From Candidatus Woesebacteria bacterium RIFCSPHIGHO2_02_FULL_42_20 (lineage in GTDB: Bacteria; Patescibacteriota; Microgenomatia; UBA8517), in assembly GCA_001792535.1 (NCBI GenBank), contig MGGS01000013.1, positions 692 to 64,691 of the forward strand: DNA of 64,000 nt, given 5' to 3'. Made by a program: the position numbers and the translations under genes. The notes under the pieces were generated by a model. The model was not told the DNA's origin and ran no database searches. It saw only the letters and a list, made by a program, of their open reading frames with translations. Each line of letters begins with the position of its first letter. Position 1 is the first letter of the stretch. Below, piece after piece: positions 36,309-59,042 of the stretch.

Positions 36309-36312
36309 AACT

Positions 36313-38146: not shown

Positions 38147-38767
38147 ATGATTGTAGTTATACTTGGCCCTCAGGGGTCGGGAAAAGGAACACAGGCGAGG
38201 TTAATTGCCGAAAAACTCGGGTTTTTTTACTTTGGTATGGGAGATTTGGTAAGAAGGTTGGCAGATACCGATCCTGCTTTGTCCAGAGAATTGGCAAAAG
38301 GAGATTTAATGCCAGATTCGGAAGGATTTGAGTATGTCAAAAGATATCTGGAAAACAACAATTCCTTTGACAATATAGTTTTTGACGGCTTTCCGCGCTC
38401 AGTAGTTCAATATGAACTTTTGAAAAATTGGCTAAAAGAGAAGGGTTCGTCTATAGACTTTGCGGTTCTCATCAGTATCACTGAGAACGAGTCCATAAAG
38501 CGATTAACCAACAGAAGAAAAGATCCTAAAACCGGGGAAATTTACAATCTGGTTACCAATCCTCCTCCTGACAATGTGGACAGAAGTTCTCTGGTGCAGC
38601 GAGAAGATGATAACCCCGAAGCAATTAAAAAAAGATTGGAATTATATAAAAAAGTGACACTCCCTTTAATAGAGCAATTCAGGGAAGACGGAATTCTAAT
38701 CGAGATTGACGGTGAGCAGCCTATTGATGTGATATTTGATAACATTTCCAGTAAATTATCAAAATGA
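38147..38767 (+). CDS. adk: adenylate kinase
   Basis: P-loop GPQGSGKGTQA, NMP-binding and short lid regions; 206 aa. Confidence 0.9.
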   Translation: MIVVILGPQGSGKGTQARLIAEKLGFFYFGMGDLVRRLADTDPALSRELAKGDLMPDSEGFEYVKRYLENNNSFDNIVFDGFPRSVVQYELLKNWLKEKGSSIDFAVLISITENESIKRLTNRRKDPKTGEIYNLVTNPPPDNVDRSSLVQREDDNPEAIKKRLELYKKVTLPLIEQFREDGILIEIDGEQPIDVIFDNISSKLSK

Positions 38768-39525
38768 GTGCCAAAGTAAATGTAAAAACTGTAGCGGATA
38801 TTGAAAAAATGCGCCAGGGGGGCAAAAAACTGGCCGAAATCAGGCGCTCGCTAGAATCTGCCATAAAACCGGGAATCGCGGCAAGCGAAATTGACGCCCT
38901 GGCAGACAAATTAATTGAAAAGGCCGGATGTAAACCATCATTTAAAATGGTCTCCGGTTATTGTTGGTCCACATGTGTAAATGTGAATGAAGGAGTGGTT
39001 CACGGAATACCGAAAAAAGAAATAGTCTTTGCCGACGGGGACTTAGTGAGTGTCGACGTAGGGGTCTATTACAGAGGTTATCACACCGACACTTCAACTT
39101 CTGTGATTGCCGGTAAAGCTAAAAATGGCCAGTTGTCTTTTTTGGCCACTGGCCGCAATGCACTAAAGAAGGGAATACTTGCCGCTAGGATTGGTAACAA
39201 AGTAGGAGACATATCGGAAGCTATCGAATCTTCTTTAAAAAAAGCAAATCTTAGCCCAATTAGAGCTCTGGTCGGTCATGGAATAGGTAAAGAACTTCAC
39301 GAAGCGCCCTATATTCCGTGCTTTGTATCAAATTCGCTCGACGAGAGCCTCAAAATAAAGGAAGGCTGGACACTGGCGATTGAGGTTATGTATACCCAAG
39401 GCAAACCCGATCTTGTTCTCGAAGAAGATAATTGGACAATACGCACAAAAGATGCTAAAATTTCAGGGCTTTTTGAAGAGACCGTAGCGGTTATCCAAAA
39501 CGGTCCTATTATTTTAACAAAGTGA
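38764..39525 (+). CDS. map: methionine aminopeptidase type I
   Basis: Pita-bread fold metal ligands (D...D...H...E...E); 253 aa. Confidence 0.85.
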
Positions 39526-39541
39526 ATTTATGATTGGTTTT

Positions 39542-39757
39542 ATGGCTAAACAGATCAACGAAGTAGTCGATGGAGAAGTACTTGAAGCGCTGCCGAATAC
39601 AATGTTTCGGGTATCGCTAGGTGAAGGGCGGAGCGTGCTTACCACACTAACCGGAAAAATGAGAAGGCGGTTTGCACGAATTTTTCCAGGGGATAAAGTA
39701 AAAGTCGAGTTTACGCCGTACGACAAGGATAGAGGCAGAATAGTGTATAAATATTAG
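39542..39757 (+). CDS. infA: translation initiation factor IF-1
   Basis: [61 protein letters not shown]: S1-like OB fold of IF-1; start set at the second ATG (39542). Confidence 0.85.
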
Positions 39758-39770
39758 AAAGGCATTCAGG

Positions 39771-39884
39771 ATGAAAGTAAGATCGTCGGTAAAAAAAATT
39801 TGCAACAATTGTAAAATAGTCAAAAGAAAAGGGGTTTTGTATGTAATTTGCATTAACCCTAAACACAAACAGAGGCAAGGATAA
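39771..39884 (+). CDS. rpmJ: 50S ribosomal protein bL36 (zinc form)
   Basis: [37 protein letters not shown] (37 aa, C-x2-C-x12-C-x4-H); not in ORF track (below size cut-off). Confidence 0.85.
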
Positions 39885-39892
39885 AAGTATAT

Positions 39893-40306
39893 ATGGCTAG
39901 AATCGCTGGAGTAGAATTACCCGAAAATATTAAAATTGACTACGCGTTGACTAAAATTCATGGCATCGGCTGGTCAGCGGCAAAAGAGGTCTTAAGAGAT
40001 GCTAAAGTGAGTAATACTAAACATGTTGCCGAGCTTACCCCCGAGGAAATTACTCATATCGCGTCCGTTGTCGATAAATTTCCCACAGAAGGTGAGCTTT
40101 CGCGTCGAGTGCGCTCAAACATTCAAAGACTTCAAGTAATCGCCTCCTATAGAGGTGTCAGACACAATCGTGGCTTGCCTGTCCGGGGGCAAAGAACTAA
40201 GACGAATGCAAGGACCAAACGCGGCAAAAGAAAGACTGTTGGAGCGTTTAAAAAAGACATACTTACAAAGATGAAGCCAGGAGGAGAGGACAAAAGCAAG
40301 GAGTAA
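39893..40306 (+). CDS. rpsM: 30S ribosomal protein uS13
   Basis: MARIAGVELPENIKIDYALTKIHGIGWSAAKEVL... uS13 N-terminus. Confidence 0.9.
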   Translation: MARIAGVELPENIKIDYALTKIHGIGWSAAKEVLRDAKVSNTKHVAELTPEEITHIASVVDKFPTEGELSRRVRSNIQRLQVIASYRGVRHNRGLPVRGQRTKTNARTKRGKRKTVGAFKKDILTKMKPGGEDKSKE

Positions 40307-40309
40307 GCG

Positions 40310-40675
40310 ATGCCAGCAAAGAAAAAAATAGACACGGCAAAAGTTTTTATCGCTGCCAGTTTTAATAACACTCTGGTTAATATCACCGACGACGGTGGTA
40401 ATTCGCTGATATGGGGTTCGGCGGGTTCTTCAGGATTTAAAGGTACTAGAAAAGCAACGCCGTATGCGGCGACAACCGCTGTTGAAAAAGTTGTCAGCCA
40501 GGCCCGTGACCAGCTCGGGGTCAAGGAGGTTGAAGTTTATATCAAAGGCCCCGGGGCCGGCCGCGATGCGGCTCTGCGAGCTATTCGTGCCTCGGGACTG
40601 AAAATTTCGATGATAGCCGATGTTACGCCTGTGCCGCACGACGGTCCCAGGCCAAAAAAGAGGAGAAGGTCGTAA
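40310..40675 (+). CDS. rpsK: 30S ribosomal protein uS11
   Basis: uS11 core; 121 aa. Confidence 0.9.
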   Translation: MPAKKKIDTAKVFIAASFNNTLVNITDDGGNSLIWGSAGSSGFKGTRKATPYAATTAVEKVVSQARDQLGVKEVEVYIKGPGAGRDAALRAIRASGLKISMIADVTPVPHDGPRPKKRRRS

Positions 40676-40676
40676 T

Positions 40677-41276
40677 ATGGGAAGGTACCTGGGACCAAAA
40701 GACAGACTATCGAGGCGCGAAAACTTTGACTTGTTTGGCAAAGGCTCGAAGATTACTCGGCTTAGCGTTCCTCCTGGAATGCACGGTCATAAGGGAACCA
40801 GAAAAGTTTCTGAATACGGAAGTCAGCTGAGAGAGAAACAAAAAGTAAAGAGAATGTATGGCCTAATGGAAAGACAACTCCGTAAATATATTGGGCAGGC
40901 ACTTAAAACTTTAGGGAACACGACAAATGTGTTGTTTGCACTTTTGGAAAGACGGCTTGACAACGTGGTTTTCCGCCTTGGTTTTGCGCCAACTCGTCCA
41001 GCAGCACGCCAGCTGGTGTCTCATAGACATGTGACGGTAAATGGTAAAGTGGTAAACATACCCTCATATCAAGTCGAGAAAGATAACTTGATTAGTCTTA
41101 CAGCTAAGGGTGTGAAGGTACCTTCAACAAAATTGAAGCTGGAAGCTAAAGATCACAACTTACCCGACTGGTTGCAAAAAAAGGCTTTAGTAGGTAAAGT
41201 ATCAAGGTTGCCGATACGTGATGACGTTCAGGAAGAAATTGACGACGCGGGCGTGATTGAGTTTTATTCGAGATAA
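40677..41276 (+). CDS. rpsD: 30S ribosomal protein uS4
   Basis: MGRYLGPKDRLSRRENFDLFGKG... uS4 N-terminus; start moved to ATG 40677 (track ORF 40620 overlaps rpsK). Confidence 0.85.
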   Translation: MGRYLGPKDRLSRRENFDLFGKGSKITRLSVPPGMHGHKGTRKVSEYGSQLREKQKVKRMYGLMERQLRKYIGQALKTLGNTTNVLFALLERRLDNVVFRLGFAPTRPAARQLVSHRHVTVNGKVVNIPSYQVEKDNLISLTAKGVKVPSTKLKLEAKDHNLPDWLQKKALVGKVSRLPIRDDVQEEIDDAGVIEFYSR

Positions 41277-41423
41277 TATGAATATATTAACGAGAGTCAA
41301 GAGCCTTGTGCTCTTATTCGAGGTAATATGAATATATTAACGAGAGTCAAGAGCCTTGTGCTCTTATTCGAGGTAATATGCATATATTAACGGGAAGCAA
41401 GAGCTTATGCTCTTGCCGAGATA
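41274..41423. repeat. three tandem 50-bp direct repeats in the rpsD-rpoA spacer
   Basis: TAATATGAATATATTAACGAGAGTCAAGAGCCTTGTGCTCTTATTCGAGG occurs twice exactly (41274..41323, 41324..41373), then a diverged third copy (41374..41423); each contains the 6-bp inverted repeat AAGAGC-CTTGT-GCTCTT. The first unit begins on the rpsD stop codon. Confidence 0.8.
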
Positions 41424-41443
41424 GTTTTAAGGAGGTGAATTAA

Positions 41444-42358
41444 GTGAGCGAACCAATATTTGAGATACAAGAAGACAAAAAAGAAAAAGGATATTCGGTT
41501 TTTACATTATCGCCTTTGGAGCAAGGGTATGGTCACACTTTGGGAACTAGTTTGCGTAGAGTACTACTGACGAGTTTGGAAGGATCAGCTGTAACAAGTG
41601 TAAAAATTGCAGGTGTAAAACACCAGTTTTCCACTCTTAAAGGTATGAAGGAAGACGTTGTTGATTTTATATTAAATGTCAAGCAGATTAGATTTTCTTA
41701 TGACGGAGATAAACCGGTAAAATTGCATCTTGCTGCAAAAACCGCCGGTGAAATTAAAGCTGGTAATATCAAAGTTTCAGGAAATATTAAAGTGGCGAAT
41801 CCAGATCTAGTTCTTTCAAAGCTTTCTAAAGGAGCAAATTTTTCCGTAGATATGGTCGTTGAAAAAGGTTTTGGCTACTCTCCGGCAGAAGAAAGAGAGC
41901 GGGGAGAAATTGGCATGATTCCAATTGACGCGGCTTTTTCGCCGGTTGTCAAAGTTAACTATAAGGTAGAAGAAACAAGAGTTGGGCGTCTTACAAATTT
42001 TGATAAATTGACTTTGGAAGTCTGGACCGATGGCACTATAGAACCCAAAGAAGCATTAATTAGAGCTTCCAAAACTTTGGTTTCGTATTTCGAACAAGTC
42101 ATTTCACCTAAAAAGGTAAAAAAGAAAAAGGATGCGGGGCCTGTTGACGCTCTGGGGCCGGTAGGTAAATTGTCGGTTGAGGAGATAGGCCTTCCGACCA
42201 GAGTTGCGAATGCACTTTCCAGAGCAGGTTATGAGACGGTAGAAAAACTGGTTAAGGCAAACCCGCAAGACTTGATGAAGGTAAGAAACTTGGGAGAGAA
42301 ATCTTTTAAGATAACCCGCGCTGCACTGATGGAGAAAGGGGTGGATTTTGTAAAGTGA
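41444..42358 (+). CDS. rpoA: DNA-directed RNA polymerase subunit alpha
   Basis: GTG start preceded by AGGAGG; N-terminal dimerisation domain (...GYGHTLGTSLRRVLLTSLEG...) and C-terminal alpha-CTD; 304 aa. Confidence 0.9.
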   Translation: MSEPIFEIQEDKKEKGYSVFTLSPLEQGYGHTLGTSLRRVLLTSLEGSAVTSVKIAGVKHQFSTLKGMKEDVVDFILNVKQIRFSYDGDKPVKLHLAAKTAGEIKAGNIKVSGNIKVANPDLVLSKLSKGANFSVDMVVEKGFGYSPAEERERGEIGMIPIDAAFSPVVKVNYKVEETRVGRLTNFDKLTLEVWTDGTIEPKEALIRASKTLVSYFEQVISPKKVKKKKDAGPVDALGPVGKLSVEEIGLPTRVANALSRAGYETVEKLVKANPQDLMKVRNLGEKSFKITRAALMEKGVDFVK

Positions 42359-42786
42359 GAAATAAGGTTTTCGGACGAAAGTTGGGGAGAGATACCGACA
42401 CCAGAAAAGCATTGTTGCGAAGCATTGTGGCTGCTGTGGTCAAAAACGGTAGCATCATTACAACCAAACCCAAGGCAAAGTTTGTTCAAGGATTTGTGGA
42501 TAAACTTGTGGTTTTGGTTAAAAAAGATACGTTAGCCGCAAGAAGGATGGTTTTTGCAAAACTTGGAAATGATAAAACAACTACGCAAAAGTTGTTCGGA
42601 GACTACAAGCTTTCCTTTGGGTATCGGAAAAGCGGCTTTACAAGGATAGTCAATTTGCCAAAACGAAAAGGCGACAGAGCGTCAATTGTGCGCCTGGAAT
42701 TTGTGGATAGGCCGGTAGCCAAAAAGACTGTGGAGGCAAAAAAGATAAAGGTGGGTTTAACAAAACCACAGGTCAAAAAGGAATAG
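42355..42786 (+). CDS. rplQ: 50S ribosomal protein bL17
   Basis: GTG start overlapping the rpoA stop; RNKVFGRKLGRDTDTRKALLRS matches the bL17 N-terminus. Confidence 0.8.
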   Translation: MRNKVFGRKLGRDTDTRKALLRSIVAAVVKNGSIITTKPKAKFVQGFVDKLVVLVKKDTLAARRMVFAKLGNDKTTTQKLFGDYKLSFGYRKSGFTRIVNLPKRKGDRASIVRLEFVDRPVAKKTVEAKKIKVGLTKPQVKKE

Positions 42787-42790
42787 AAAA

Positions 42791-43210
42791 ATGAAAACAC
42801 ACCAACCAAAAGTAAGTAAGATTAAGCGGGATTGGCATTTGATGGATGCAGCGAGCGAGCCGTTGGGTAGGCTGGCCAGCCGTTCGGCTTATTTATTGAT
42901 TGGGAAAAATAAAAAAGACTATACACCCAATTATGATATGGGTGATTTTGTTGTTGTGGTAAATGCAAGGAAAGTAAAAGTGACGGGTAAAAAAGCCAGC
43001 CAGAAAGTTTATCGAAGCCATTCGGGGTACCCCGGGGGTTTTAAGGAAGTTACATTTAAAAGGCTTAGTGAGAAAAAGCCGGAGGACATAATTAAAAAGG
43101 CCGTTTTTGGTATGCTTCCCGACAACAGGCTTAAGAAATTCAGACTTAAAAGGCTGATGGTGGTTGCAGGCAGCGACAACCCTTTCCAAAATAAATTTGA
43201 AGGCAAATAA
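42791..43210 (+). CDS. rplM: 50S ribosomal protein uL13
   Basis: uL13-like, 139 aa. Confidence 0.85.
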   Translation: MKTHQPKVSKIKRDWHLMDAASEPLGRLASRSAYLLIGKNKKDYTPNYDMGDFVVVVNARKVKVTGKKASQKVYRSHSGYPGGFKEVTFKRLSEKKPEDIIKKAVFGMLPDNRLKKFRLKRLMVVAGSDNPFQNKFEGK

Positions 43211-43214
43211 AAAT

Positions 43215-43631
43215 ATGGCTAAAGATACAAAAACAAAAAAGGGCTATGTATACGCCATTGGGCGAAGGAAATCCGCTTCGGCAAGGGTGAGGCTTTTCAA
43301 AGGAAACAAGGAAAGCCTGGTAAATGGAGAGGTTATCGGAAAATACTTTCCCGGCGAAGCCATGAGAAAGGTTTGGTCCAAGCCGTTTACGCTAGCGGGT
43401 GTGGCCGGTAAGTACTTCGTTACTATAAAGGTTTCAGGTGGCGGTAAAATTGGGCAATTGGAAGCGGCAGTCCATGGAATTTCCAGAGCGCTCTCGCTTA
43501 TCGACTCGAATAAGTTTAGAAGTACTCTCAAGAAGTTTGGCTTACTTACCCGCGATCCCAGGGTTCGTGAGCGAAGAAAAATCGGCACTGGCGGAAAAGC
43601 CCGCCGTAAAAAGCAGTCACCAAAGAGGTAA
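43215..43631 (+). CDS. rpsI: 30S ribosomal protein uS9
   Basis: MAKDTKTKKGYVYAIGRRKSASARVRL ... C-terminal GGKARRKKQSPKR; start set at ATG 43215. Confidence 0.85.
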   Translation: MAKDTKTKKGYVYAIGRRKSASARVRLFKGNKESLVNGEVIGKYFPGEAMRKVWSKPFTLAGVAGKYFVTIKVSGGGKIGQLEAAVHGISRALSLIDSNKFRSTLKKFGLLTRDPRVRERRKIGTGGKARRKKQSPKR

Positions 43632-49367: not shown

Positions 49368-49377
49368 AAAAAATTTT

Positions 49378-49470
49378 GTCGAGATTTACGAAAAAGTTAG
49401 AACCGAATTTCGCAAAGGGTAGCTCGGCCGCCTGCGGCGGCCTCGCTTCCGTTATTTTTTGCGCGCGCGA
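49378..49470 (+). repeat. att-arm repeat copy A (element-end arm; candidate attL)
   Basis: GTCGAGATTTACGAAAAAGTTAGAACCGAATTTC followed by GC-rich hairpins (GGCCGCC-TGC-GGCGGCC, CCTCGC-TTC-GCGAGG) and a T-run; about 80% identical to copies at 55568 and 57184 (inverted). Confidence 0.6.
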
Positions 49471-49493
49471 TTTTATCCTCGCTTCGCGAGGAG

Positions 49494-49955
49494 CTATAGA
49501 GAAATTGAATTCACCAAATCTCTAAAAATAGGAAGATTGGCTTCGTCAATTTGTTGATAAGCTGTTTTCCACTCGGATTTATTAACAACCTCAACATTAT
49601 TTGGCGAGCCTTGAATTCTTACCGTATCATAGTTATCGTTGATAAGAAAAACCTCTCGTGAATATACCCATTCTGTTTGAGCTGTTTCTGATAGAGTTGA
49701 GATATACTCAACTCCTTTGTAATTTCCGATATTCGTTTGTTTAATTCTGATCAACTTACTTCTTAAATCTGATTTTGTTTCCCCATCTTTCATTGTAAGT
49801 AAGGGTAAGTAGCCCTCGAGCCAAGGTTGATTCTTTTTGTACTCGTCTATCGCGGTTCCTTGTGGTTTCTTTGTGTACTGTACACTTATATAATATGAAT
49901 TTTTCTTATCGTACTTTCTGTCTAACCGATCTGTTCCGTATGGATATCTTAACAA
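49494..49955 (-). CDS. hypothetical protein (153 aa) occupying the position of the missing recombinase catalytic domain
   Basis: ORF only; its 5' end abuts the truncated recombinase homology at about 49960. Confidence 0.3.
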   Translation of the reverse strand: MLRYPYGTDRLDRKYDKKNSYYISVQYTKKPQGTAIDEYKKNQPWLEGYLPLLTMKDGETKSDLRSKLIRIKQTNIGNYKGVEYISTLSETAQTEWVYSREVFLINDNYDTVRIQGSPNNVEVVNKSEWKTAYQQIDEANLPIFRDLVNSISL

Positions 49956-49959
49956 TCCG

Positions 49960-50976
49960 AAAACCAGAGGAATAGATGTTGACCCTGAAAAATCAAAGGC
50001 AGTAAAACGAGCTTTTGAAATGTTTGCGGAAGGAAGTCATACTTTTACGGATATTGCCAAATATCTTCATAAATTTGAATTGGGGCGCAAAAACGGGAAA
50101 CCACTTCATATCAACGAAATCCGGCAAATACTCTCGAATAAGTTTTACGTTGGGATAATGTTTTATAACGGTGAGTATCACGACGGAAACCACAAGAGTT
50201 TTGTTTCCAAGGAGCTATTCCAGAAAGTACAAGAGGAAATGCAAAGACGGAGTAAACATTTCAAAAAGTCATATCATTTCCCGTTTTTAGGACTAGCAAG
50301 GTGTAGCGAATGCGGCGCGGCGATCACGGCCGAGCAACACATCAAGTTTTACAAAACCACCAACCGCAAGGTTACTTACGTTTATTATCGTTGCACCAAA
50401 AAACTTGGTCCATGTTCTCAAACGCCAATTACCAATTTTGAAATGGAGGAACAATTAAGAAAAGTTGTTTCTGATGTCGTGCTTCCGCAGTCTTGGGCAG
50501 ACCAGTGGTTGAAATTTTTGGAACGAGACGAGTTAGTCGAAAAACAATCATCAGGAACAACTATCCAAAATCTCAAAACTGAAATTCAAGATCTAGATCG
50601 AAAACAAAACACACTTTTGGACAGTTATCTTGATAGCGTTGTTGATCCTGAAACTTATAAATCTAAGAAAAACGAAATGTTCGAAACAAAACTTAAATTA
50701 CAAGAAGAAATCGTCAAAGTTGAGGAGACGGGTTCGAGTTGGCTCGAACCTATGAGAAATTTCGTAAATTGCGCCTTACAGGCGCAAAAAATCGCGCGCG
50801 CAAAAAATAATTGCGAAGAATTAGCATTCTTCGCAAAACGTGTCGGCTCGAACTTCTTTTTATCCAATCGGCAGCTCTCAGCAGAGCATAAAAAGGGCTT
50901 TGCGGCGCTCCGTGCGGGCGGCGGCGCACGGAGCGCCTCCACCGACTCTATCGATTTTTCTCTCTTGGTCGCATAG
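49960..50976 (+). pseudogene. 5'-truncated large serine recombinase (lacks catalytic resolvase domain)
   Basis: Homology begins at TRGIDVDPEKSKAVKRAFEMFAEGSHTFT and runs to the stop; about 90% aa identity to residues 165-536 of the recombinase at 57432; Ser-nucleophile N-terminal about 165 aa absent; ends at a TTGGTCG core junction (50965). Confidence 0.75.
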
Positions 50977-51141
50977 AAGCGAACAATCTTGAACTAGTTA
51001 CCGAAGCTATTTTATCACATTGGAAACTAATAAACTTTGACGAAAAAAGTATAGTCCTCAATCCATATAATGTGTTCCAAGATAGAAACAGCATGGGTTT
51101 TGTATACAGCTATTGATAATGAAGTCATGGCTTGAACTGAT

Positions 51142-51576
51142 ATGAAGACAGACAAACTAACATTAAAGCAGCGCAAATGGTTAGAAATCTACCTTGAAAC
51201 CGGTAACGCAACTGCAGCAGCGCGTCGCGCGTACAACTGCAACGAACGTAGCGCAAGGCAAATAGGTTACGAGAACATGACAAAACTTGACTTTACAGAC
51301 GTTCTAGAAGCCCATGGCGCTACTGCAGCAATGCTTGTGAAGTTAATTGTAGAAGGTGCTAAAGCAACAAAACTGATTAAAGACAAGGAATTTCCCGATT
51401 GGGAAGTAAGGCACAAATACTTAATAACCATTCTGCGCTTGAAGAAAATGTACCCGCAGCCGGAAGCTATAGGCAATAATGGCGAGGAACCAATCCGTAT
51501 TGTCTTCCAAGACCCGTTTCAAGACCCAACACCAAGCACAAAAATTGACACGAATAGACCTAATTTGATAACATAA
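51142..51576 (+). CDS. phage terminase small subunit (Terminase_2/TerS-like)
   Basis: LTLKQRKWLEIYLETGNATAAARRAYNCNERSARQIGYENMTK matches the TerS HTH signature (LT.KQ..F..EYL..GNAT.AA..AGY). Confidence 0.6.
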   Translation: MKTDKLTLKQRKWLEIYLETGNATAAARRAYNCNERSARQIGYENMTKLDFTDVLEAHGATAAMLVKLIVEGAKATKLIKDKEFPDWEVRHKYLITILRLKKMYPQPEAIGNNGEEPIRIVFQDPFQDPTPSTKIDTNRPNLIT

Positions 51577-51937
51577 TGTTGCTACAATAAGTAGCAAATT
51601 AAGTTAATTAGCTTCATAGAACGCTTTAAGCAGTCCGAAGCAAGTCGCAACGGCTGCTTTTTTATTTGTCCAAAAAGCGTCTATGAAGAAACGTTTCAAA
51701 AGAAAACTAAACGTAGTTCCCACAAAACCGAATTCCGGTTACGCTTCTATTCCCCAAAATCCAACAGAACGGGTAATTCAACTTGTGACGCTTATGGCGT
51801 CGGTGAAAACCGATACAGAAGAAGCAAAGCTAAATGCTACAACCATTTCCGATAACAACGGCAGAAGAATAAACTTATAAAGCCCCTACAATTCCGCATA
51901 AACCCTATAAAAAAATGATATACTTACAGCAAAGATT

Positions 51938-52921
51938 ATGGCTAAAAGCGGTCTATCCATTATTGTTATTGGTGGTTTAAATACAGATATTGTTGCAATT
52001 GGTGCTAAAAAACTATTAAAAGCGGGTGAACACACCTATGCTAGCGAATTAAGGATTGGTGCCGGCGGGAAATCGCGCAATATGGCACAAATGATTGCTA
52101 CTTTAGTTGGTAAGGATAAAGTAGCGATGGTTGGAAAGACTTCAAAAGACCCATATGGTTTTTGGAAAGTGCCATTAGTAGCCTTAAAGCAAGCAAAAGT
52201 AAACACCGAATATGTAAAGATAGCGTCTTTTAAGGAAAGTAATCAGTTCCCCGGAATTGCACTTATACCCGTAGACACGGAGGGAAGAAACCAAATCTAT
52301 GTATTACCGGGAATTACAAATAGTTTTTTGCCCAAAGATATTGATGACGCAAGCGAACTTTTCAAATCGGTTGCAAAAAACAATGGCATATTACTTGTTT
52401 CATTGGAATTACCCTTGCAAACAGCAATTTACGCAATCAAAAAGGCTAATCAAATGGGTATAAAAGTTTTCTTTGACCCCGGTGGAATAGACGAAACAGA
52501 AAATTATAGTGAATTACTAAAACAGAATATCTATTTGATTAAACCAAACGAACATGAAGCTAAAATTCTAACAAGTATAGCAGTTATTGATTTTGATACT
52601 GCGAAGAAAGCAGCGACAAAGTTATTAGGCAAAGGTACAGAAAATGTCCTTATCACAGTTGGGGTAAATGGTGGCTACTTCTTTAACAAAATCGTAGGAA
52701 AACATATCCCTATCCCTAAAATTAAAAGCAGTTCTGTAAAAGACGAAACGGGTTGCGGCGACCAAACCATGGCGGCTTTGTGCACGGCACTTGCCGAAGA
52801 CAAAGATATTCTTGAAGCAATCAATATCGGACTACTTGCGGGAACCTTGCAGTTTGGCAAATCGGGCATTGTCCCTATTACCAAAAAAGAAATTAACAAG
52901 TATTTACATAACAGACTATGA
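51938..52921 (+). CDS. pfkB/ribokinase-family carbohydrate kinase
   Basis: N-terminal IIVIGGLNTDIV (GG dipeptide region) and C-terminal ETGCGDQTMAAL (DTxGAGD-type anion hole) motifs; 327 aa. Confidence 0.7.
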   Translation: MAKSGLSIIVIGGLNTDIVAIGAKKLLKAGEHTYASELRIGAGGKSRNMAQMIATLVGKDKVAMVGKTSKDPYGFWKVPLVALKQAKVNTEYVKIASFKESNQFPGIALIPVDTEGRNQIYVLPGITNSFLPKDIDDASELFKSVAKNNGILLVSLELPLQTAIYAIKKANQMGIKVFFDPGGIDETENYSELLKQNIYLIKPNEHEAKILTSIAVIDFDTAKKAATKLLGKGTENVLITVGVNGGYFFNKIVGKHIPIPKIKSSSVKDETGCGDQTMAALCTALAEDKDILEAINIGLLAGTLQFGKSGIVPITKKEINKYLHNRL

Positions 52922-53310
52922 TTTCCGATGTTTTAGCAGTTTATAATTTAATTAAAGAAACAGTTGACGAAGCGAGTGTATTAAACGCTTTATTTTCGTT
53001 TGATGGTACGCGAAAAGAAGGTGACGAAGTAATTAAAGTGAGGATTAACAAGGCAACAGACAACCAATGGTTTTATGAAATAGAACCGTATGAAGATTAT
53101 ATTTTAATTCCCTTTCCGGTTAACCAAGCAGTATATGTGGATTATGGTCTAGAAAAGGATAGTCAAAACCCTTCGGTAAAATTTTTTAGGTATGTATCAA
53201 GCCCGCTTTCAAGATATAGCCAAGGTGGTGAACCTAATGTTAGGGTAGATTTTTTTGTGTTTGGGTACAGACCTTCGGATTTAATGGCAAGTCGCAAGAA
53301 AAAAGCCTAG
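52918..53310 (+). CDS. hypothetical protein (130 aa)
   Basis: ORF overlapping the pfkB stop by 4 nt; no motif. Confidence 0.3.
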   Translation: MISDVLAVYNLIKETVDEASVLNALFSFDGTRKEGDEVIKVRINKATDNQWFYEIEPYEDYILIPFPVNQAVYVDYGLEKDSQNPSVKFFRYVSSPLSRYSQGGEPNVRVDFFVFGYRPSDLMASRKKKA

Positions 53311-53326
53311 CAAGGAAAAAATAACA

Positions 53327-54034
53327 ATGAACGTCAATGGTAATTTACAGTATAAGCAAGCACAACGGGAACTTTTTGACGAACTTGAAAATAAGTTCAA
53401 AAACGGTGAAAAACCCTCAACCATTGTTGAACCCGTAAAAGATTATGAAAATGATAATAGAATTTGTTTAACAAGCGTAGCTTTTATTCCACCACACCTT
53501 CAAGAAATAATATTGTCCACGGTTGTTGACCCGCTTAAAAGTGCAGATAGCCAACAATACTATTACATTCAAAACTCCTTCCATTTAACCATTCAAAATA
53601 TACGAACGATTAACTTGCCGCCGTTGTTTAGCGATAGCGATATTGAAAAGGCAATAAAAGTATTTGACCAAATAGTGCCAAAACATAAACATTTGTTCTT
53701 TGATATTGAAGGTCTTTTTGAACTTCCAACAAGTCTATCTTTGCGTGCCTATGCTGATAAAGGATTAAAAGATTTAGCCTTGGAATTAAGGCGGGGGTTA
53801 AAAGAAGCCGGGGTTCCCGATAACAAAACGTATGCTTCAAGTGATGTAGTATTTGGCAATACAAGTGTTTGCAGATATACAACAACACCAAATGATTTGT
53901 TTTTTAATGAAGTTAAACGGCTAAAAAATATAAAGATAGGTCGTTTAGAAGTTTCAACAGTTTCCTTAATCACGACAAATTCTGTTTGTCACCCTAGTAA
54001 AACAAAAATAATCAAAGAATTTAACTTGGCTTAA
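53327..54034 (+). CDS. hypothetical protein (235 aa), weak 2H-phosphoesterase-like HxT/S motifs
   Basis: FHLTIQ and CHPSK could be the two H-x-T/S-x motifs of the 2H superfamily; weak. Confidence 0.3.
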   Translation: MNVNGNLQYKQAQRELFDELENKFKNGEKPSTIVEPVKDYENDNRICLTSVAFIPPHLQEIILSTVVDPLKSADSQQYYYIQNSFHLTIQNIRTINLPPLFSDSDIEKAIKVFDQIVPKHKHLFFDIEGLFELPTSLSLRAYADKGLKDLALELRRGLKEAGVPDNKTYASSDVVFGNTSVCRYTTTPNDLFFNEVKRLKNIKIGRLEVSTVSLITTNSVCHPSKTKIIKEFNLA

Positions 54035-54046
54035 AGTGTTTATTTT

Positions 54047-55591
54047 ATGGATAATGACATTGACCTAACAAAGCTAAAATATGTTTTATATGCCCGTAAA
54101 TCCACAGACGACCCCGAACGGCAAGTAAGGTCGGTTGAAGACCAAATAGCCGAATGTGAACATTTGGCAATGCGGTTAGGTATACACCTCGTAAAACCCC
54201 ACATAATTGAAAAAAAGTCCGCTAAAAGACCCGGACAAAGACCATTGTTCAAACAAATGCTAAATGACATCAGGAAAGGCGTCTACGACGGCATAGTGGC
54301 GTGGAACCCGGATAGGTTGGCAAGGAACATGAAGGAAGGTGGGGAAATTATTGATATGGTGGACGAAGACCTAATAAAAGATATGCGCTTTGTTACCCAC
54401 CACTTTTCAAAAGACGCGAACGGTAAAATGTTACTTGGAATGGCATTTGTATTATCAAAGCAGTATTCGGACAAATTATCACAAGACGTAACAAGGGGCT
54501 TGCACCGTAAAGTTGAAGAAGGCAAATCACACATTCCAAAACACGGCTATATTAAAGACGAAGAAGGGTTGTATAGACCCGACGGCAGAAACTTTGAATT
54601 GATTTGTGAAGCGTGGGCAATGCGTAAAGAAGGCACGTCCTTGGAACAAATAGAAGAATATCTTGATAAAGAAGGCTATCAACGAATAATTAAAACGTCC
54701 GGTAAACCCGTAAAACTTACCTTCAAGCGATTAAGCGATTTGTTCAAAGACCCATTCTACTACGGCTTACTTATTCAAGGCGCAAAACGGATTGATTTAC
54801 GTGAAGTATACGAATTCAAACAAGCTGTAACCGAAGCGGACTACAACCAAATTCAACAGCTTTTTTATAACAAAACCAAGCCATATCGTACGCGCCGGTT
54901 AAGTTTCTATCCCCTTAAACTAATGCTTAAGTGCAGTTTTTGCAGTAGTAATATGGTGATTGCGCCTTCAACCGGTTCAACAAAGCGGTATTTGAATGCA
55001 AGGTGTGATAACAAGTTCTGTTCGCGCAAAAAGAAATCAATACGTATGATAAACGTATTTAACTTTATTTACGACTTTTTGGACAAAGGACTTAATTTTA
55101 CAGTAAAGGATTATAACGACTACTACAAGGGAATGACCACGTATTCCGAAGCCAAACAACAAAAGGTGCAAATTGAAATTCACAGCAAGCAAGCAATTTT
55201 GCGCAATGTTGATATTGAAGTGCGGGAACGCGCATTAAAGATATTGGATTTTGAAAAGTCTTCAACGGTGCGGAAGATTAACGAAGACAAAATCGCCGAG
55301 CTTGAAGACCAAAAAGAACAATTGAAGGAACAAATAGCCAAGTTGCAGCAGCAAATAGCAGAACCCGAAAAGGATAGATTAACGTTAGAAGAATTCTTGA
55401 ACTTGTCAAAAAATGCCGCCACGGTGGTCAAATCGGGTGACGCAAGTGTTAAAGACCAAATTTGCCGTTTAATTTTCTTGAACTTTACCGTTGATGAAGC
55501 GAAAGTGGCGTCATATCAACTAAAAGAACCATTTACCACCCTACTAAAACATCATAGTTTGTCATTTGGTCGAGATTTACGAAAAAGTTAG
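54047..55591 (+). CDS. large serine recombinase (resolvase catalytic domain, recombinase domain, zinc ribbon, coiled coil)
   Basis: YARKSTDDPERQVRSVEDQ (catalytic Ser), DRLARN, Cys cluster CSFC...C.NKFC, C-terminal coiled coil; last 7 codons lie inside att-arm repeat B. Confidence 0.85.
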   Translation: MDNDIDLTKLKYVLYARKSTDDPERQVRSVEDQIAECEHLAMRLGIHLVKPHIIEKKSAKRPGQRPLFKQMLNDIRKGVYDGIVAWNPDRLARNMKEGGEIIDMVDEDLIKDMRFVTHHFSKDANGKMLLGMAFVLSKQYSDKLSQDVTRGLHRKVEEGKSHIPKHGYIKDEEGLYRPDGRNFELICEAWAMRKEGTSLEQIEEYLDKEGYQRIIKTSGKPVKLTFKRLSDLFKDPFYYGLLIQGAKRIDLREVYEFKQAVTEADYNQIQQLFYNKTKPYRTRRLSFYPLKLMLKCSFCSSNMVIAPSTGSTKRYLNARCDNKFCSRKKKSIRMINVFNFIYDFLDKGLNFTVKDYNDYYKGMTTYSEAKQQKVQIEIHSKQAILRNVDIEVRERALKILDFEKSSTVRKINEDKIAELEDQKEQLKEQIAKLQQQIAEPEKDRLTLEEFLNLSKNAATVVKSGDASVKDQICRLIFLNFTVDEAKVASYQLKEPFTTLLKHHSLSFGRDLRKS

Positions 55592-55671
55592 AACCGAATT
55601 TCAAAGTTGTTAGCTCGGCCGCTTCGCGGCCTCGCAAGGTGAGCGCGGCGCCCCCACCCGCCGCGCTTCCG
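55568..55671 (+). repeat. att-arm repeat B; left copy of a perfect 104-bp inverted repeat
   Basis: GGTCGAGATTTACGAAAAAGTTAGAACCGAATTTCAAAGTTGTTAGCTCGGCCGCTTCGCGGCCTCGCAAGGTGAGCGCGGCGCCCCCACCCGCCGCGCTTCCG; reverse complement found exactly at 57184..57287; contains two GC hairpins. Confidence 0.85.
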
Positions 55672-55733
55672 TTATTTTATGCGTATTTTATGCGCGCGCG
55701 ATTTTTAGATAGCAATTATTAATGCGAAATATT

Positions 55734-56966
55734 CTAATAAGACTTCAGTGTGCTTTTCAGTAAAATTCCGTTTGCCCAATATTCACCAGTACCCCCAGAG
55801 GGTAAAATGTCATAGGTATAGTGCTGGTTATACAATTTACTTTCTACTTTTATAACTTTGACTCCGGCTATGTAGTCACTATCTTTTATTTGTCCCACCA
55901 AACGCCCATCTCCCAAAGGATGTCCGGAAGAAGCGCTTAGCTCCTTACCATCAGCTAAAAGTATGTGTGCAATTCTAAAGTCAGCAGGAACAAGGGAATG
56001 GCTAACTTGTTGAACAGTTCCAGCAACTGGTTCACCAGTATCATTGGTTGTCCAAACGGGCGTACCAATAACAACGTCTTTAATCAAAACTTCTCCCTGC
56101 GGTGTAGAAATTTTTGCTTGACTATCAAGACAAATTGGTCCGGGTCCGCCGCGATAGCGTTGTATCAACTCGACTGATTCAAATAAATCTAAGGTCTTAA
56201 GCTTGTTCTGAAAATCAGTTTCTTTTCCACTAGGGACGTTCAATTCAGTGGAAAGGGCTTCATACCATGGATTCGTTCTGTTCCCAAAAGATTCCTGTCC
56301 GCTTTCAATATTTACCACCGCAATTTCAACAGTAGAGCTGCCAATCTGTTTTTTAGCCACATCGACTAAATCGGGATAATTCGCATGTAACCATTCATCT
56401 TCTTCAAACCAGCTCAATGGTGTTCTAAATGTTACCCATAAATAAGCTGTGTCTTCTCTAATGCGTTCTTTGTATTTGCCCAACTGTTCGTCAGTATAGG
56501 TATAGTCCACATTGAGTATCTTGGAATCCGTGCTTAGTTTGCGTCCATAGAGCTGGCCGCCGATACGACTAGGTGTGGCAAAAAGAGTGGTTTTAATCTT
56601 CAAAACATCTGAAGGAAGTTGTAAGTCCATAAGAGATAATTGATCACTGGCGATCTTGATATCTGCATTCGGTTTAAACTTTACCCGCAACTTGCCCGTC
56701 ACAATATCTTCTGTTTCATTTTTACCCAAGGTAAGCTTATCTATCTTCTTGTTCAGTGTATAGAAAGTATAAAACCCTCCAAATAATAAAACGGCAAACA
56801 GAATCATCGCTGAAAACATCCATGGATTTATCTTTCTCCTTCTGGAAGATGCTGTGAGATTGCTTGTCTGATTTTGCCCGATTTGCTGCGTATTTTGATC
56901 ACCAATATTTGTTTGATTTTCCATATGTATCTCTATGAAAAAGTATATCATATTTGAAGATTTCAA
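55734..56966 (-). CDS. membrane-anchored protein with C-terminal Hint (Hedgehog/intein-like, bacterial intein-like) domain
   Basis: TM anchor (MFSAMILFAVLLFGGFYTFY), 230-aa unknown domain, then GGPGPI-CLDSQAKISTPQGEVLIKDVVIGTPV...HPL...YTYDILPSGGTGEYWANGILLKS: Hint signature beginning with the nucleophile Cys and ending in the Y.YD....F.ANGIL.HN block. Confidence 0.7.
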   Translation of the reverse strand: MKSSNMIYFFIEIHMENQTNIGDQNTQQIGQNQTSNLTASSRRRKINPWMFSAMILFAVLLFGGFYTFYTLNKKIDKLTLGKNETEDIVTGKLRVKFKPNADIKIASDQLSLMDLQLPSDVLKIKTTLFATPSRIGGQLYGRKLSTDSKILNVDYTYTDEQLGKYKERIREDTAYLWVTFRTPLSWFEEDEWLHANYPDLVDVAKKQIGSSTVEIAVVNIESGQESFGNRTNPWYEALSTELNVPSGKETDFQNKLKTLDLFESVELIQRYRGGPGPICLDSQAKISTPQGEVLIKDVVIGTPVWTTNDTGEPVAGTVQQVSHSLVPADFRIAHILLADGKELSASSGHPLGDGRLVGQIKDSDYIAGVKVIKVESKLYNQHYTYDILPSGGTGEYWANGILLKSTLKSY

Positions 56967-57183
56967 GTATCAAAATGCTCTTGTATTTTTATTGCCTTCT
57001 CTGGTATATTGTTATCGTACTCAACTCATGGCGGATCTCTTTTTTGATGGCCGTCTTGGTCAACTAGGAGAGATCCGAGTTGAGTACAACCAGGGCGGCC
57101 ATTTAAGTTGTATAAAAGTTCTTTAAAATTTTTGCGTTTTTTTTAGTTTTGCTCAGAACAAAACCAATTCGAGCTGACACGTT

Positions 57184-57372
57184 CGGAAGCGCGGCGGGTG
57201 GGGGCGCCGCGCTCACCTTGCGAGGCCGCGAAGCGGCCGAGCTAACAACTTTGAAATTCGGTTCTAACTTTTTCGTAAATCTCGACCAAAAGAGAAAGAG
57301 AGTCCGTCGAGTTGGAGGCGCTCCTTGCGCCGCCGCCCGCACGGAGCGCCGCAAAGCCCTTTTTATATTCTG
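57184..57372 (-). repeat. inverted att-arm repeat C (104 bp identical to B) fused to an inverted 85-bp copy of a recombinase 3' end
   Basis: 57184..57287 is the exact reverse complement of 55568..55671; 57288..57372 reverse complement matches 58838..58925 (3' end of recombinase 57432..) with few mismatches. An inverted attP-like site. Confidence 0.85.
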
Positions 57373-57431
57373 CCGAGAGCTACCGGAAAAAAGAAGGAAA
57401 GAAAACGCAAAAATTTTAGGAAAACAAAAAT

Positions 57432-59042
57432 ATGAACAAATACATAGCTTATTGCCGAAAATCGAGAGACGAAGCAGACAAACAAATTTTGTCCATTGAG
57501 GCGCAAATTGCTGAATTAAAAGAATTTGCCAAACGGGAGCATTTGGAGATTGTCGAGTTTGTCGAGGAAGCCAAAACCGCCAAAATACCAGGAAGGGAGC
57601 AGTTTGCCAAAGTCCTAAAGAAAATCGAACAGGGGCACGCAAACGGAATCGTTGCGTGGCACCCCGATCGTTTGGCTAGAAACTCAATGGATGGCGGTAA
57701 AATTATTTACCTTCTGGATACCGGCAAACTGCTTGATCTGAAATTTCCAACGTCTTGGTTTGAGAATACACCACAAGGAAAGTTTATGCTTTCAATCGCC
57801 TTTGGCCAATCGAAATATTATGTAGACAATCTTTCCGAGAACGTAAAGCGAGGATTGCGCCAGAAACTCCGCAACGGAGTTTGGCCGGCTAAAGCTCCTT
57901 ATGGCTATGTGAACAATCCCAAAACCAGAGGAATTGATGTTGACCTCGAAAGATCAAAAGCCATCAAACGAGCTTTTGAAATGTTTGCGGAAGGAAGCCA
58001 TACATTTACTGATATTGCCAAGTATCTCCATAAATTCGATCTGAAACGCAAAAACGGAAAACCTCTCCATGTCAACGAAATCCGGCAGATACTCTCAAAC
58101 AAATTTTATATTGGAATTATGTTTTACAACGGTGAGTATCACGACGGAAATCATAAATGTTTTATCTCTAAAGAGTTATTCCAAAAAACACAAGGAGAAA
58201 TGAACCGAAGAAGCAAACATTTTAAAAAGTCATACCGTTTTCCGTTTTTGGGACTCGTAAGGTGCAGCGAATGTGGCGCGGCAATCACCGCCGAGCAACA
58301 CACGAAGTTCTACAAAACTACCAACCATAAAGTTACCTACGTTTACTATCGCTGCACCAAAAAACTTGGTCCTTGTTCTCAAATACCAATTACCAGTTTT
58401 GAGATGGAAGAACAAATAAGAAAGGTTGTTTCTGATGTGAGCTTGCCGCAAAGCTGGGCTGATAATTGGTTGAAATTTTTAGAACGGGACGAATTAATCG
58501 AGAAACAATCATCAGAAACAACTATCCAAAATCTCAAAACTGAAATGCAGGAAATAGATCGAAAGCAAAACACACTTTTGGACAGCTATCTCGATAGTGT
58601 CGTTGACCCCGAAACTTATAAAAGCAAGAAAAACGAAATGTTTGAATCAAAACTCAAATTACAAGAAGAAATCGCCAAAGTTGAGGAGACGGGTTCGAAT
58701 TGGCTCGAACCTATGAGAGAATTTGTAAATTGCGCCTTACAGGCGCAAAAAATCGCGCGCGCAAAAAATAATTGCGAAGAATTAGCATTCTTCGCAAAAC
58801 GTGTCGGCTCGAACTTCTTTTTATCTGATCGGCAGCTCGCGGCAGAATATAAAAAAGGCTTCTCGGCGCTCCGTGCGGGCGGCGGCGCAAGGAGCGCCTC
58901 CAACTCGACGGACTCTCTTTCTCTTTTGGTCGGGGTACCAGGAATCGAACCTGGACCGCACGGCCCCCAGCCGCGCATTCTACCACTAAACTATACCCCG
59001 GTAGAGAGTATTTTATACCCAAAATACCTTAGTTTGCACTAA
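57432..59042 (+). CDS. large serine recombinase; 3' end continues antisense through tRNA-Pro
   Basis: YIAYCRKSRDEADKQILSIEAQ (catalytic Ser), recombinase domain, zinc ribbon CSECG...C.KKLGPC, coiled coil. Homology with the other copies ends at about 58925; the last 39 codons (GVPGIEPGPHGPQPRI...) are antisense tRNA, so the native C-terminus is replaced by the integration junction. Confidence 0.85.
   Translation: MNKYIAYCRKSRDEADKQILSIEAQIAELKEFAKREHLEIVEFVEEAKTAKIPGREQFAKVLKKIEQGHANGIVAWHPDRLARNSMDGGKIIYLLDTGKLLDLKFPTSWFENTPQGKFMLSIAFGQSKYYVDNLSENVKRGLRQKLRNGVWPAKAPYGYVNNPKTRGIDVDLERSKAIKRAFEMFAEGSHTFTDIAKYLHKFDLKRKNGKPLHVNEIRQILSNKFYIGIMFYNGEYHDGNHKCFISKELFQKTQGEMNRRSKHFKKSYRFPFLGLVRCSECGAAITAEQHTKFYKTTNHKVTYVYYRCTKKLGPCSQIPITSFEMEEQIRKVVSDVSLPQSWADNWLKFLERDELIEKQSSETTIQNLKTEMQEIDRKQNTLLDSYLDSVVDPETYKSKKNEMFESKLKLQEEIAKVEETGSNWLEPMREFVNCALQAQKIARAKNNCEELAFFAKRVGSNFFLSDRQLAAEYKKGFSALRAGGGARSASNSTDSLSLLVGVPGIEPGPHGPQPRILPLNYTPVESILYPKYLSLH
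58926..58999 (-). tRNA. tRNA-Pro (anticodon GGG), CCA encoded
   Basis: Folded by hand: acceptor CGGGGTA/TACCCCG, D arm with GG, anticodon stem CGCGG/CCGTG, loop CUGGGGG (anticodon GGG), T arm CCAGG-TTCGATT-CCTGG, discriminator A plus CCA; 74 nt. Confidence 0.8.

Follow-up and report, generated by a model that had tools for sequence, protein, structure and literature searches.

A lone small terminase homolog on a serine recombinase cassette of a Woesebacteria genome

Does a gene for a small terminase subunit (TerS), encoded beside a serine recombinase and apart from a large terminase (TerL), mark a phage satellite? This question is raised by one segment of the genome of Candidatus Woesebacteria bacterium RIFCSPHIGHO2_02_FULL_42_20. 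The window analyzed here is a stretch of 64,000 nucleotides of contig MGGS01000013.1 (positions 692 to 64,691 of the forward strand), and all positions below refer to it. A sequence-only reading had described 50972-55591 as an element resembling the phage-inducible chromosomal islands (PICIs) rather than a prophage. Overall this reading was partly supported. Its observation was confirmed: the segment is a discrete element and not a prophage. It encodes an integrase, cargo and a true TerS homolog that stands alone, its ends are shared across different flanks, and a 99% identical copy exists elsewhere.

Element beta and its genes

Comparison with other copies delimited a discrete integrative cassette of 4.6 kb with a large serine recombinase (LSR), here called element beta, at 50968-55572 on the plus strand. 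Its ends, 50968-50971 and 55569-55572, consist of the GTCG core common to both junctions. The left end, GTCGCATAGAAGCGAAC, begins at the identical base behind six different left flanks (those of the window, L011/L012, L019, L010, L009 and L020; L numbers denote loci used for comparison), and the right end, ...GTTTGTCATTTG followed directly by GTCG, continues into four differing right flanks in the window, L018, L019 and L020. These limits, with GTCG at both junctions, were set because the ends are identical across differing flanks. The left edge proposed earlier was correct within a few bases, and the right edge included about 20 nt of flank, which are the last seven LSR codons and the stop. 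The features of beta are as follows, with open reading frame abbreviated as ORF.

50967-51116, plus strand: 49 codons and stop, cut off from the 3' part of the beta LSR gene; also the P' arm of attP
51142-51576, plus strand: TerS homolog of Terminase_2 / SF6-SPP1 G1P type, 144 aa (Pfam, PHROG, family profile)
51577-51682, plus strand: conserved spacer between TerS and the 65-aa gene (alignment, RNAalifold, terminator scan)
51683-51880, plus strand: 65-aa protein, o65 (no family match)
51938-52921, plus strand: pfkB/ribokinase-like kinase, 327 aa (Pfam PfkB)
52918-53310, plus strand: 130-aa ORF (no family match)
53327-54034, plus strand: 235-aa ORF (no family match)
54047-55591, plus strand: LSR Rec2, 514-aa ORF as integrated (Pfam Resolvase, PHROG 95)

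All the genes named earlier for the segment, TerS, a pfkB kinase, three unknown ORFs and a second recombinase, were found at essentially the coordinates then given. When all six ORFs of beta were scanned against Pfam, PHROGs and NCBIfam, TerS alone was phage-like and no structural or lysis gene was found. The same scans gave no replication-related match for any of the ORFs, the 65-, 130- and 235-aa proteins remaining without a family, and no repressor, AlpA or helix-turn-helix (HTH) regulator besides the HTH of TerS itself. Judged by its sequence, beta is a site-specific integrative cassette driven by an LSR. Its backbone consists of the left end, TerS, the RNA-structured spacer, the 65-aa protein and the LSR, and a swappable cargo slot of 0.9-2.2 kb lies between the 65-aa gene and the LSR.

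The comparison of copies indicates that beta is recently mobile. Two groundwater loci, L011 and L012, are 99.3 and 97.6% identical to the window from 50968 onward, and their upstream neighbour is atpC instead of a decayed recombinase; the 99.3% identity of the copy lying downstream of atpC in another groundwater assembly extends over 2 kb. L010 and L009 agree with beta in the leftmost 0.9 kb, in the 130-aa gene and at the start of the LSR, and differ in cargo, and also backbones with LSRs 95-98% identical hold different cargo. The close relatives of beta measure about 3.3-4.6 kb, with the following cargo.

Window: pfkB kinase, 130-aa and 235-aa proteins
L018: class I methyltransferase, in an element of about 3.3 kb
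L019: UPF0020 methyltransferase
L010: GrpB, M48 peptidase and the 130-aa gene
L009: methyltransferase, the 130-aa gene and AAA_28

A sister element in L020 begins with the left end of beta, and the two LSRs are 83% identical; it has no TerS and carries a MerR/HTH_17 gene instead. The LSR of L020, located at tRNA-Pro(TGG) (7437-8966 of that locus), has two in-frame stop codons, and this copy is probably immobilised.

The assignment of the 51142 protein to the Terminase_2-type TerS proteins was borne out by profile search. It matched Pfam Terminase_2 (PF03592; E=2e-10, 41.8 bits, cutoff 26.1) with residues 6-53 only, which are the HTH, and PHROG 51 'terminase small subunit'. A profile of 16 TerS homologs, compared with the SF6 G1P structure 3zqp, aligned profile positions 4-120 with 3zqp residues 21-146 (E=9e-11), a match spanning both the HTH and the putative oligomerisation helices. 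The AlphaFold2 (AF2) model (pLDDT 73) showed an HTH, two helices (62-73 and 87-100), a short hairpin and a low-confidence tail. The top Foldseek matches of the model were the SF6 TerS DNA-binding domain and the TerS of PaP3/NV1, none at E<=0.001; for the SF6 domain (2cmp, 4zc3) the identity was about 32%, the probability 0.99 and E=0.27-0.38.

On phage contigs, TerS homologs at 37-48% identity stand directly upstream of a TerL or TerL-sized gene, with portal or SU10-type capsid genes next, and 18 of the 33 closest TerS homologs in IMG/VR have a TerL homolog directly after them. Within the lone-TerS lineage the ratio of nonsynonymous to synonymous substitution rates (dN/dS) of TerS is 0.09-0.16, and the C-terminal EEPxRIVF strand is conserved. 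Because of the Pfam and PHROG matches, the 3zqp profile match, the fold model, the TerL-adjacent homologs and the purifying selection, the window protein is, by homology, a genuine small terminase.

Homologs more than 60% identical to the window TerS never adjoin TerL, and no TerL was found next to the window TerS in the element, among the large ORFs of the window or in the related loci. The earlier statement that large terminase, portal, capsid and tail genes are missing from the window agrees with Pfam scans of its large and flanking ORFs, the small ORFs not having been scanned exhaustively: the 11 ORFs of at least 386 aa outside the island, small flanking ORFs and two upstream ORFs gave housekeeping families or nothing. 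Within 4 kb of beta the only ORFs of at least 380 aa are LSRs and a 410-aa Hint-like ORF.

Two more lone Terminase_2 genes, 51-52% identical to the window TerS and without TerL after them, were seen in L008, beside an HTH_3 regulator and a Trans_reg_C protein, and in L013, beside a UPF0020 methyltransferase and a DnaD_N/HTH_36 protein. In these communities, lone TerS genes may extend beyond this one element family.

The spacer between TerS and o65 is 97-100% identical in L010, L011, L012, L018 and L019 and 87% identical over 86 nt in the more distant L009; in the coding genes flanking it, dS is 0.3-0.5 for L010 and L019. It contains a 7-bp hairpin and, according to the terminator scan, a terminator-like hairpin with a T-run. 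In addition, a long stem of 15 bp is predicted, in which CTTCATAGA..CGCTTT pairs with AAAGCG..TCTATGAAG, spanning the o65 start codon. RNAalifold found 37 pairs in the spacer, with one compensatory change from G-C to A-U. The burial of the start codon in the predicted outer stem suggests that the 65-aa gene is under tight control.

Homologs of o65 occur in about 85 of the 96 family loci examined (see below), positioned either immediately ahead of the LSR or close behind the left end. They were recovered by jackhmmer on the fetched loci; the word-index homolog search had given only two proteins. The C-terminal motif PEAKLN.T.ISDNNGGRIEL is conserved, dN/dS is 0.09-0.30, and no match was found in Pfam, PHROG or NCBIfam. 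The protein is a candidate directionality factor or regulator of the LSR family.

Of the cargo of beta, the kinase matched Pfam PfkB (E=4e-36) and, under its cutoff, the ribokinase family TIGR02152 (E=2e-48). A homolog of the 130-aa protein occurs also outside any LSR element, in a metagenome-assembled genome (MAG) of Woykebacteria; the AF2 model of this protein (pLDDT 53) was too low in confidence for a fold search. The UniRef name '2'-5' RNA ligase' of the 235-aa protein was not confirmed by Pfam, and searches of PDB sequences with the 130-aa and 235-aa proteins gave nothing useful.

The recombinase family and its split gene

Mobile elements and gene-exchange routes of the Candidate Phyla Radiation (CPR, or Patescibacteria) are barely characterised. 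The window comes from this group, as the earlier reading presumed: proteins identical to its own are deposited for Candidatus Woesebacteria RIFCSPHIGHO2_12_FULL_41_24 / ACD_57C from Rifle/ACD groundwater. Protein-guided scans for the LSR family of beta gave 22 loci in metagenomes and 80 in genomes. The genome loci were taken from 225 relatives found in 185,579 species genomes. Of these loci, 96 (16 from metagenomes and 80 from genomes) were analyzed in detail. The named hosts were Daviesbacteria, Gottesmanbacteria, Shapirobacteria, Roizmanbacteria, Woesebacteria, Saccharibacteria, Paceibacterota and Nomurabacteria. Among the 75 loci in which the LSR 3' end is complete and further sequence follows it, 65 have a tRNA gene on the opposite strand that starts at most 60 nt away; it was tRNA-Pro in 51, tRNA-Met in seven, tRNA-Leu in six and tRNA-Ser in one. 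The 25 family elements that were measured range from 2.9 to 9.2 kb. No homolog of five reference TerL proteins was found in any of the 96 family loci, which were searched together with as much as 10 kb of flanking sequence.

TerS-like genes were present in about 13 of 100 loci: in the beta subfamily, in L024, L027 and L125, and, as a truncated 130-aa type not recognised by Pfam, in L120, L121, L122, L126 and L136. In all six copies of the beta subfamily TerS has a fixed backbone position outside the cargo slot.

Some MAGs with non-CPR labels also carry the LSR, otherwise restricted to the CPR, next to tRNA-Pro. These include many titled 'uncultured Gammaproteobacteria' or 'Pseudomonadales' (TPA; L130, L132, L134, L136, L145 and others), one Nitrospirota MAG and one Bathyarchaeota MAG. 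The labels probably reflect mislabelling or mis-binning, not the true host range.

Rec2, the LSR of beta, matched Pfam Resolvase (E=1e-23) and, with residues 8-489, PHROG 95 'integrase' (E=4e-54). The nucleophile motif YARKST is present in the sequence, and a match to Zn_ribbon_recom was weak and under the Pfam cutoff (E=0.023, 15.5 bits vs 25.3). The ORF crosses the right junction, its last seven codons and stop being supplied by the end of the neighbouring element, and its cluster mates of 511, 514, 515, 517 and 554 aa diverge only after ...SLSFGR. The first approximately 147 nt of beta hold a start-less ORF, open for 49 codons and with the same stop in six elements, and the ratio of nonsynonymous to synonymous polymorphism (pN/pS) is 0.31 in this frame vs 1.47 and 1.38 in the other two.

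Joining the right end to the left end produced the continuous frame …S L S F G R I E A N N L E L…, with the reconstructed attP junction …AGTTTGTCATTTGGTCGCATAGAAGCG… / …CATAGTTTGTCATTTGGTCGCATAGAAGCGAAC…. The LSR and tail ORFs were in phase across the reconstructed attP in every locus in which both GTCG junctions could be located (23/23). In 39 family loci, homologous tail peptides (…LELLxExILxxWK…GFxYxY-stop) are encoded 1.5-7.6 kb upstream of the LSR and on its strand. The GTCG core is common to attL, attR, the tRNA-Pro 3' end and the neighbouring elements. On the evidence of these reading frames, attP is inside the LSR gene, and integration separates the final 49 codons from the rest of the gene and places them at the opposite end of the element. 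In the circular, excised form the gene would code for an LSR of about 556 aa; on integration its last 49 residues would be lost or exchanged, and this may control the activity or direction of the LSR. The 554-aa LSR variants arise from the right flank of L018, which codes for a related tail of 47 aa and for a further o65 homolog.

An exhaustive search with the tail only recovered small ORFs of 44-117 aa ending in the tail and two long repetitive proteins; that no contiguous LSR of about 556 aa was among them is uninformative, as the library keeps one representative per cluster. In the fusellovirus SSV1, attP lies inside the integrase ORF and the gene is partitioned by integration. The arrangement in beta resembles this SSV-type in the location of attP within the integrase ORF and differs in that the SSV enzyme is an archaeal tyrosine recombinase whereas here a bacterial LSR loses only its last 49 codons. 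No description of a gene-internal attP in serine integrases was found among the ten best-ranked literature matches. A serine integrase recoded by its own integration would be a new coupling of enzyme form to integration state, and, large serine integrases being widely used in genome engineering, one of practical interest. The results of most interest reach beyond the first observation: a recombinase family found throughout the CPR, its split gene, and a conserved 65-aa partner whose leader is structured. The family offers a concrete candidate vehicle by which small genes of metabolism and modification (kinases, methyltransferases, peptidases) could move among many CPR lineages.

Known satellites and the possible role of the small terminase

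PICIs measure about 10-15 kb and have tyrosine integrases, a repressor or AlpA module, and a primase or replicase with an origin. Beta is like the PICIs and the related SaPIs in its site-specific integration, the lack of structural and lytic genes, and the TerS homolog of its own with accessory cargo; it differs in its length of 4.6 kb and its serine recombinase, and the modules just listed were not found in it. Thus an LSR with a specific att site (GTCG at the tRNA-Pro 3' end), a packaging gene (TerS) and the lack of structural genes agree with a PICI, and the replication module, the regulatory module and the size do not. Because of these three, beta is not a PICI, and the PICI membership first proposed is not supported, as no recognisable replication module and no repressor or AlpA module accompany its 4.6 kb. 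An integrase together with a lone TerS, offered then as the defining PICI arrangement, is not sufficient. Nor is a serine recombinase in a satellite something new, since PLEs and 91% of the module-3 VEIMEs have one (PMC9618062). The remark that satellites are uncharacterised in CPR bacteria still holds, no description for CPR or Patescibacteria having been found in the literature searched.

PLEs, of about 18 kb, act on the packaging motor of the helper through a TerS of their own, encode their own replication initiator and many helper-interference genes, and are not known to integrate into tRNA genes. The PLE of Vibrio cholerae, a satellite with an LSR integrase, was likened to beta by shared domain families. 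PLEs are the only reference satellites with a serine recombinase (PMC9618062), and they are reported to manipulate the packaging motor of the helper (10.1101/2024.04.22.590561). VEIMEs and PICMIs are minimal marine satellites. VEIME monomers range from less than 5 kb to 16.8 kb, and some have serine recombinases and TerS homologs (PMC9618062); PICMI115, a PICMI, is 6.1 kb (PMC10803314). These small satellites (<5 kb to about 6 kb) are packaged as concatemers (PMC9618062, PMC10803314). Beta shares with VEIMEs and PICMIs the very small size and the lack of capsid-remodelling genes. Those elements, however, were found inside virions, whereas beta is known from genome and metagenome assemblies, has a CPR host and has no recognisable replication gene; PICMIs, furthermore, encode a primase and AlpA and lack terS.

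SCC elements of staphylococci form composite tandem arrays. Like beta, they are cargo cassettes moved by LSRs into one site and have no transfer genes of their own; beta differs in its target, a tRNA gene and not rlmH, in its much smaller size and in the presence of TerS, and the matches to Ccr are far under the family cutoffs. Tycheposons integrate at tRNA genes, have tandem-repeat junctions and swappable cargo, and in a minority use LSRs (10.1101/2020.12.28.424599). The tycheposons of Prochlorococcus resemble beta in integration at the tRNA 3' end, tandem arrays, modular cargo and a streamlined genome, which is an analogy and not membership; most tycheposons use tyrosine recombinases and many carry replication genes. 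The PICI-like tycheposons are reported to carry TerS or a major capsid protein and never extra cargo (10.1101/2020.12.28.424599), whereas beta combines TerS with cargo. Beta is best described, by analogy with tycheposons and SCC cassettes, as a tRNA-targeted LSR cargo element with an optional TerS module, and this module makes a minimal-satellite lifestyle plausible.

The tentatively favoured explanation, with a chance somewhat short of even, is that beta is a minimal satellite-like element which uses TerS for packaging by a phage. TerS would form an assembly of the kind made by phage small terminases, attach to a site within the element and bring in the TerL of an infecting pac-type phage; the DNA of the element, or of the element and adjacent chromosome, would be packaged by headful and transduced, and o65 would be the excision or regulatory partner of the recombinase. 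Beta would then act as a minimal satellite or 'hitcher' in the manner of a VEIME, PICMI, PLE or PICI-like tycheposon, not of a PICI. This role is favoured because TerS is the sole transfer-related function aboard an element that otherwise has no way out of the cell, is a gene of the beta backbone and recurs in distant branches of the family, a distribution that argues for a recurrent functional link. Beta may, by its gene content, be packaged in phage particles.

Several observations weigh against such a role. No replication gene is recognisable, so beta has no obvious route to the concatemers used by small satellites, and it has no repressor or AlpA-type induction module. Only about 13% of the family loci have a TerS-like gene and the sister element in L020 has no TerS, for which reasons the mobility of the family is independent of TerS. 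The L120-type proteins stop right after the second helix and may not bind TerL, and the central hairpin of the window TerS itself is about 20-45 residues shorter than in phage homologs. In IMG/VR, no phage TerS more than 50% identical to the window TerS was found, and two conserved element motifs had zero matches. Neither a helper phage nor a pac site, a circular form of beta or a read derived from virions came to light.

The absence of TerS from 87% of the family fits also a rather unlikely alternative, in which TerS has been exapted as a DNA-binding accessory or regulator, shaping the att architecture or repressing the o65 and LSR genes, and has no packaging role, the element spreading by transformation or other means. 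The N-terminal HTH is the most conserved part of TerS, several family members have truncated TerS-like proteins without the C-terminal tail, and in others HTH_17/MerR (excisionase-type) proteins replace TerS; terS, moreover, adjoins the att site and lies directly upstream of the structured spacer that masks the o65 start codon. Exaptation does not account well for two features kept under purifying selection, the helices of the putative oligomerisation core and a C-terminal strand as found in ring-forming TerS, and the far more widely conserved o65 is a better directionality or regulatory candidate than TerS. Large serine recombinases are not known to need architectural proteins, which also counts against exaptation.

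Less probable again, and distinctly doubtful, is that the lone TerS is an anti-phage decoy carried as cargo, which through mixed TerS rings or TerL titration protects the host, and thereby the element, and does not mobilise the latter. Defence cargo is common on small integrative elements, methyltransferases are among the other cargo of close relatives, and the patchy distribution of TerS over the family is accessory-like; satellites are also reported to disturb helper packaging via terminase-directed proteins (10.1101/2024.04.22.590561). The position of TerS in the fixed backbone, outside the cargo slot, in six of six beta-subfamily copies speaks against a decoy, as does its dN/dS of about 0.1, which gives no sign of diversifying selection.

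A prophage that has decayed down to this segment, its integrase and TerS having survived by chance beside captured host genes, is suggested by the decayed recombinase next door and by TerS and the LSR 'integrase' (PHROG 95) both being typical phage genes, but this extremely improbable reading is effectively refuted by the intact beta ORFs under purifying selection, the precise ends shared by copies in different flanks (one 99% identical), the recurrence of the same compact architecture with other cargo, and the lack of a TerL homolog in the 96 family loci, with measured elements of only 2.9-9.2 kb.

A more far-reaching proposal, rather unlikely in its entirety, combines the satellite-like role with the split gene. 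It would make the family a CPR-wide set of tRNA-targeting cassettes of 3-9 kb, in which the LSR gene spans its own attP and integration swaps a 49-residue tail as a switch of direction or activity; the TerS branch (beta of 4.6 kb and relatives of about 3.3 kb) would be the smallest satellites known and the first in CPR, using the TerL of a helper without a replication gene of their own. If a lone TerS indeed recruits the terminase of a helper, these would be the most reduced satellites known and would set a new lower bound for hijacking a tailed phage.

The tandem array and its surroundings

Three LSR elements follow one another head-to-tail at the 3' end of tRNA-Pro(GGG), and beta is the middle one. 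The order in the window is: HD-gene; O-Y, alpha (153-aa ORF and truncated Rec3-type gene), X-O; beta; O-Y, gamma (Hint-like gene, inverted X-O-Y and Rec3), X-O; tRNA-Pro; recA. In self-comparison, repeat X comprised the last approximately 119 nt of the Rec3-type genes and repeat Y the approximately 114-150 nt starting with GTCGAGATTTACG…; each of them joins the core O (…TTTTGGTCG). The features of alpha and gamma are the following.

49373-50971, plus strand: alpha, decayed (self-BLAST, junction alignment)
49373-49474: alpha left-end repeat O-Y
49494-49955, minus strand: alpha 153-aa ORF
49935-50971, plus strand: alpha 5'-truncated Rec3-type LSR gene, 86% identical to 57896-58932
50853-50971: alpha right-end repeat X-O
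55569-58932, plus strand: gamma, nearest to the tRNA gene (self-BLAST, alignment)
55558-55706: gamma left-end repeat O-Y
55734-56966, minus strand: Hint-like 410-aa gene
57184-57396, minus strand: inverted intact X-O-Y copy
57432-59042, plus strand: ORF of the full LSR Rec3 (Pfam Resolvase, Recombinase and Zn_ribbon_recom)
58814-58932: gamma right-end repeat X-O
58927-59000, minus strand: tRNA-Pro(GGG) (ARAGORN; Rfam tRNA, 61.2 bits)

The decayed recombinase reported earlier at the left junction of beta is real: 49935-50971 matches the 3' two-thirds of the third recombinase gene at 86% identity and in Pfam retains Recombinase and Zn_ribbon_recom only, with no catalytic domain. The left-end repeats of alpha and gamma (49373-49446 and 55564-55635) are 87% identical by self-BLAST. 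The best NCBIfam match of Rec3 was CcrB-like (E=4e-30, 105 bits vs a cutoff of 900).

The 3' end of tRNA-Pro(GGG) (TGGTCGGGG on the plus strand) overlaps the core and is the attachment target of the array. In relatives, a Rec2-type LSR abuts the tRNA gene at the same GTCG (…TCATCTA directly joined to GTCGGGGAGAGAGGACTCGAACC…). Every newcomer would integrate at the tRNA 3' end, the site having been regenerated by the prior insertion, and because each integration takes place at this regenerated site, gamma would be the youngest and alpha the oldest member. That beta was inserted into an 'X-O-Y' site was considered and dropped once the relatives showed the LSR 3' end against tRNA-Pro. Also the interpretation of Y as a tRNA or tmRNA remnant was dropped, Y being the left end of Rec3-type elements that loosely mimics the tRNA 3' end; a search of 48.5-59.5 kb with Rfam for the GC-rich hairpin repeats X and Y as known RNA matched the tRNA only. 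In two relatives, L018 (3074-3455) and L019 (from 11094), the right flanks are the left ends of further, different elements and not a tRNA gene, and tandem stacking of such cassettes therefore seems common.

The inverted X-O-Y copy in gamma is an attP-like site ending 36 nt upstream of the Rec3 start codon, 98% identical to Y (55558-55671) and 92% to X (58814-58932). Several inversion and tandem histories were tried for it and none gave the observed order; it could be an autoregulatory site or an aberrant recombination product. The Hint-like gene lies between 114-nt inverted repeats that are 98% identical and each include a recombination core (segment 55558-57297), and the Rec3 gene lies between 119-nt inverted X repeats that are 92% identical. 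The recombinase might be able to invert either of these two segments.

Rec3-type ORFs stay open through the GC-rich hairpin repeats (58814-59042 and 50853-50976), that of Rec3 also through the whole antisense tRNA-Pro. Because several other frames on both strands are open there as well, the annotated C-termini of Rec3-type recombinases are probably read-through of non-coding att sequence.

Outside the array, the window carries chromosomal, non-viral genes, among them those for MetRS, an aldehyde dehydrogenase, a UvrD/PD-(D/E)XK helicase-nuclease, a T2SSE ATPase, RecX and RNase Y. In keeping with this chromosomal setting, a long series of short ORFs at 28568-43631, all on one strand, has strongly positive GC and AT skew and looks like the ribosomal-protein/secY operon.

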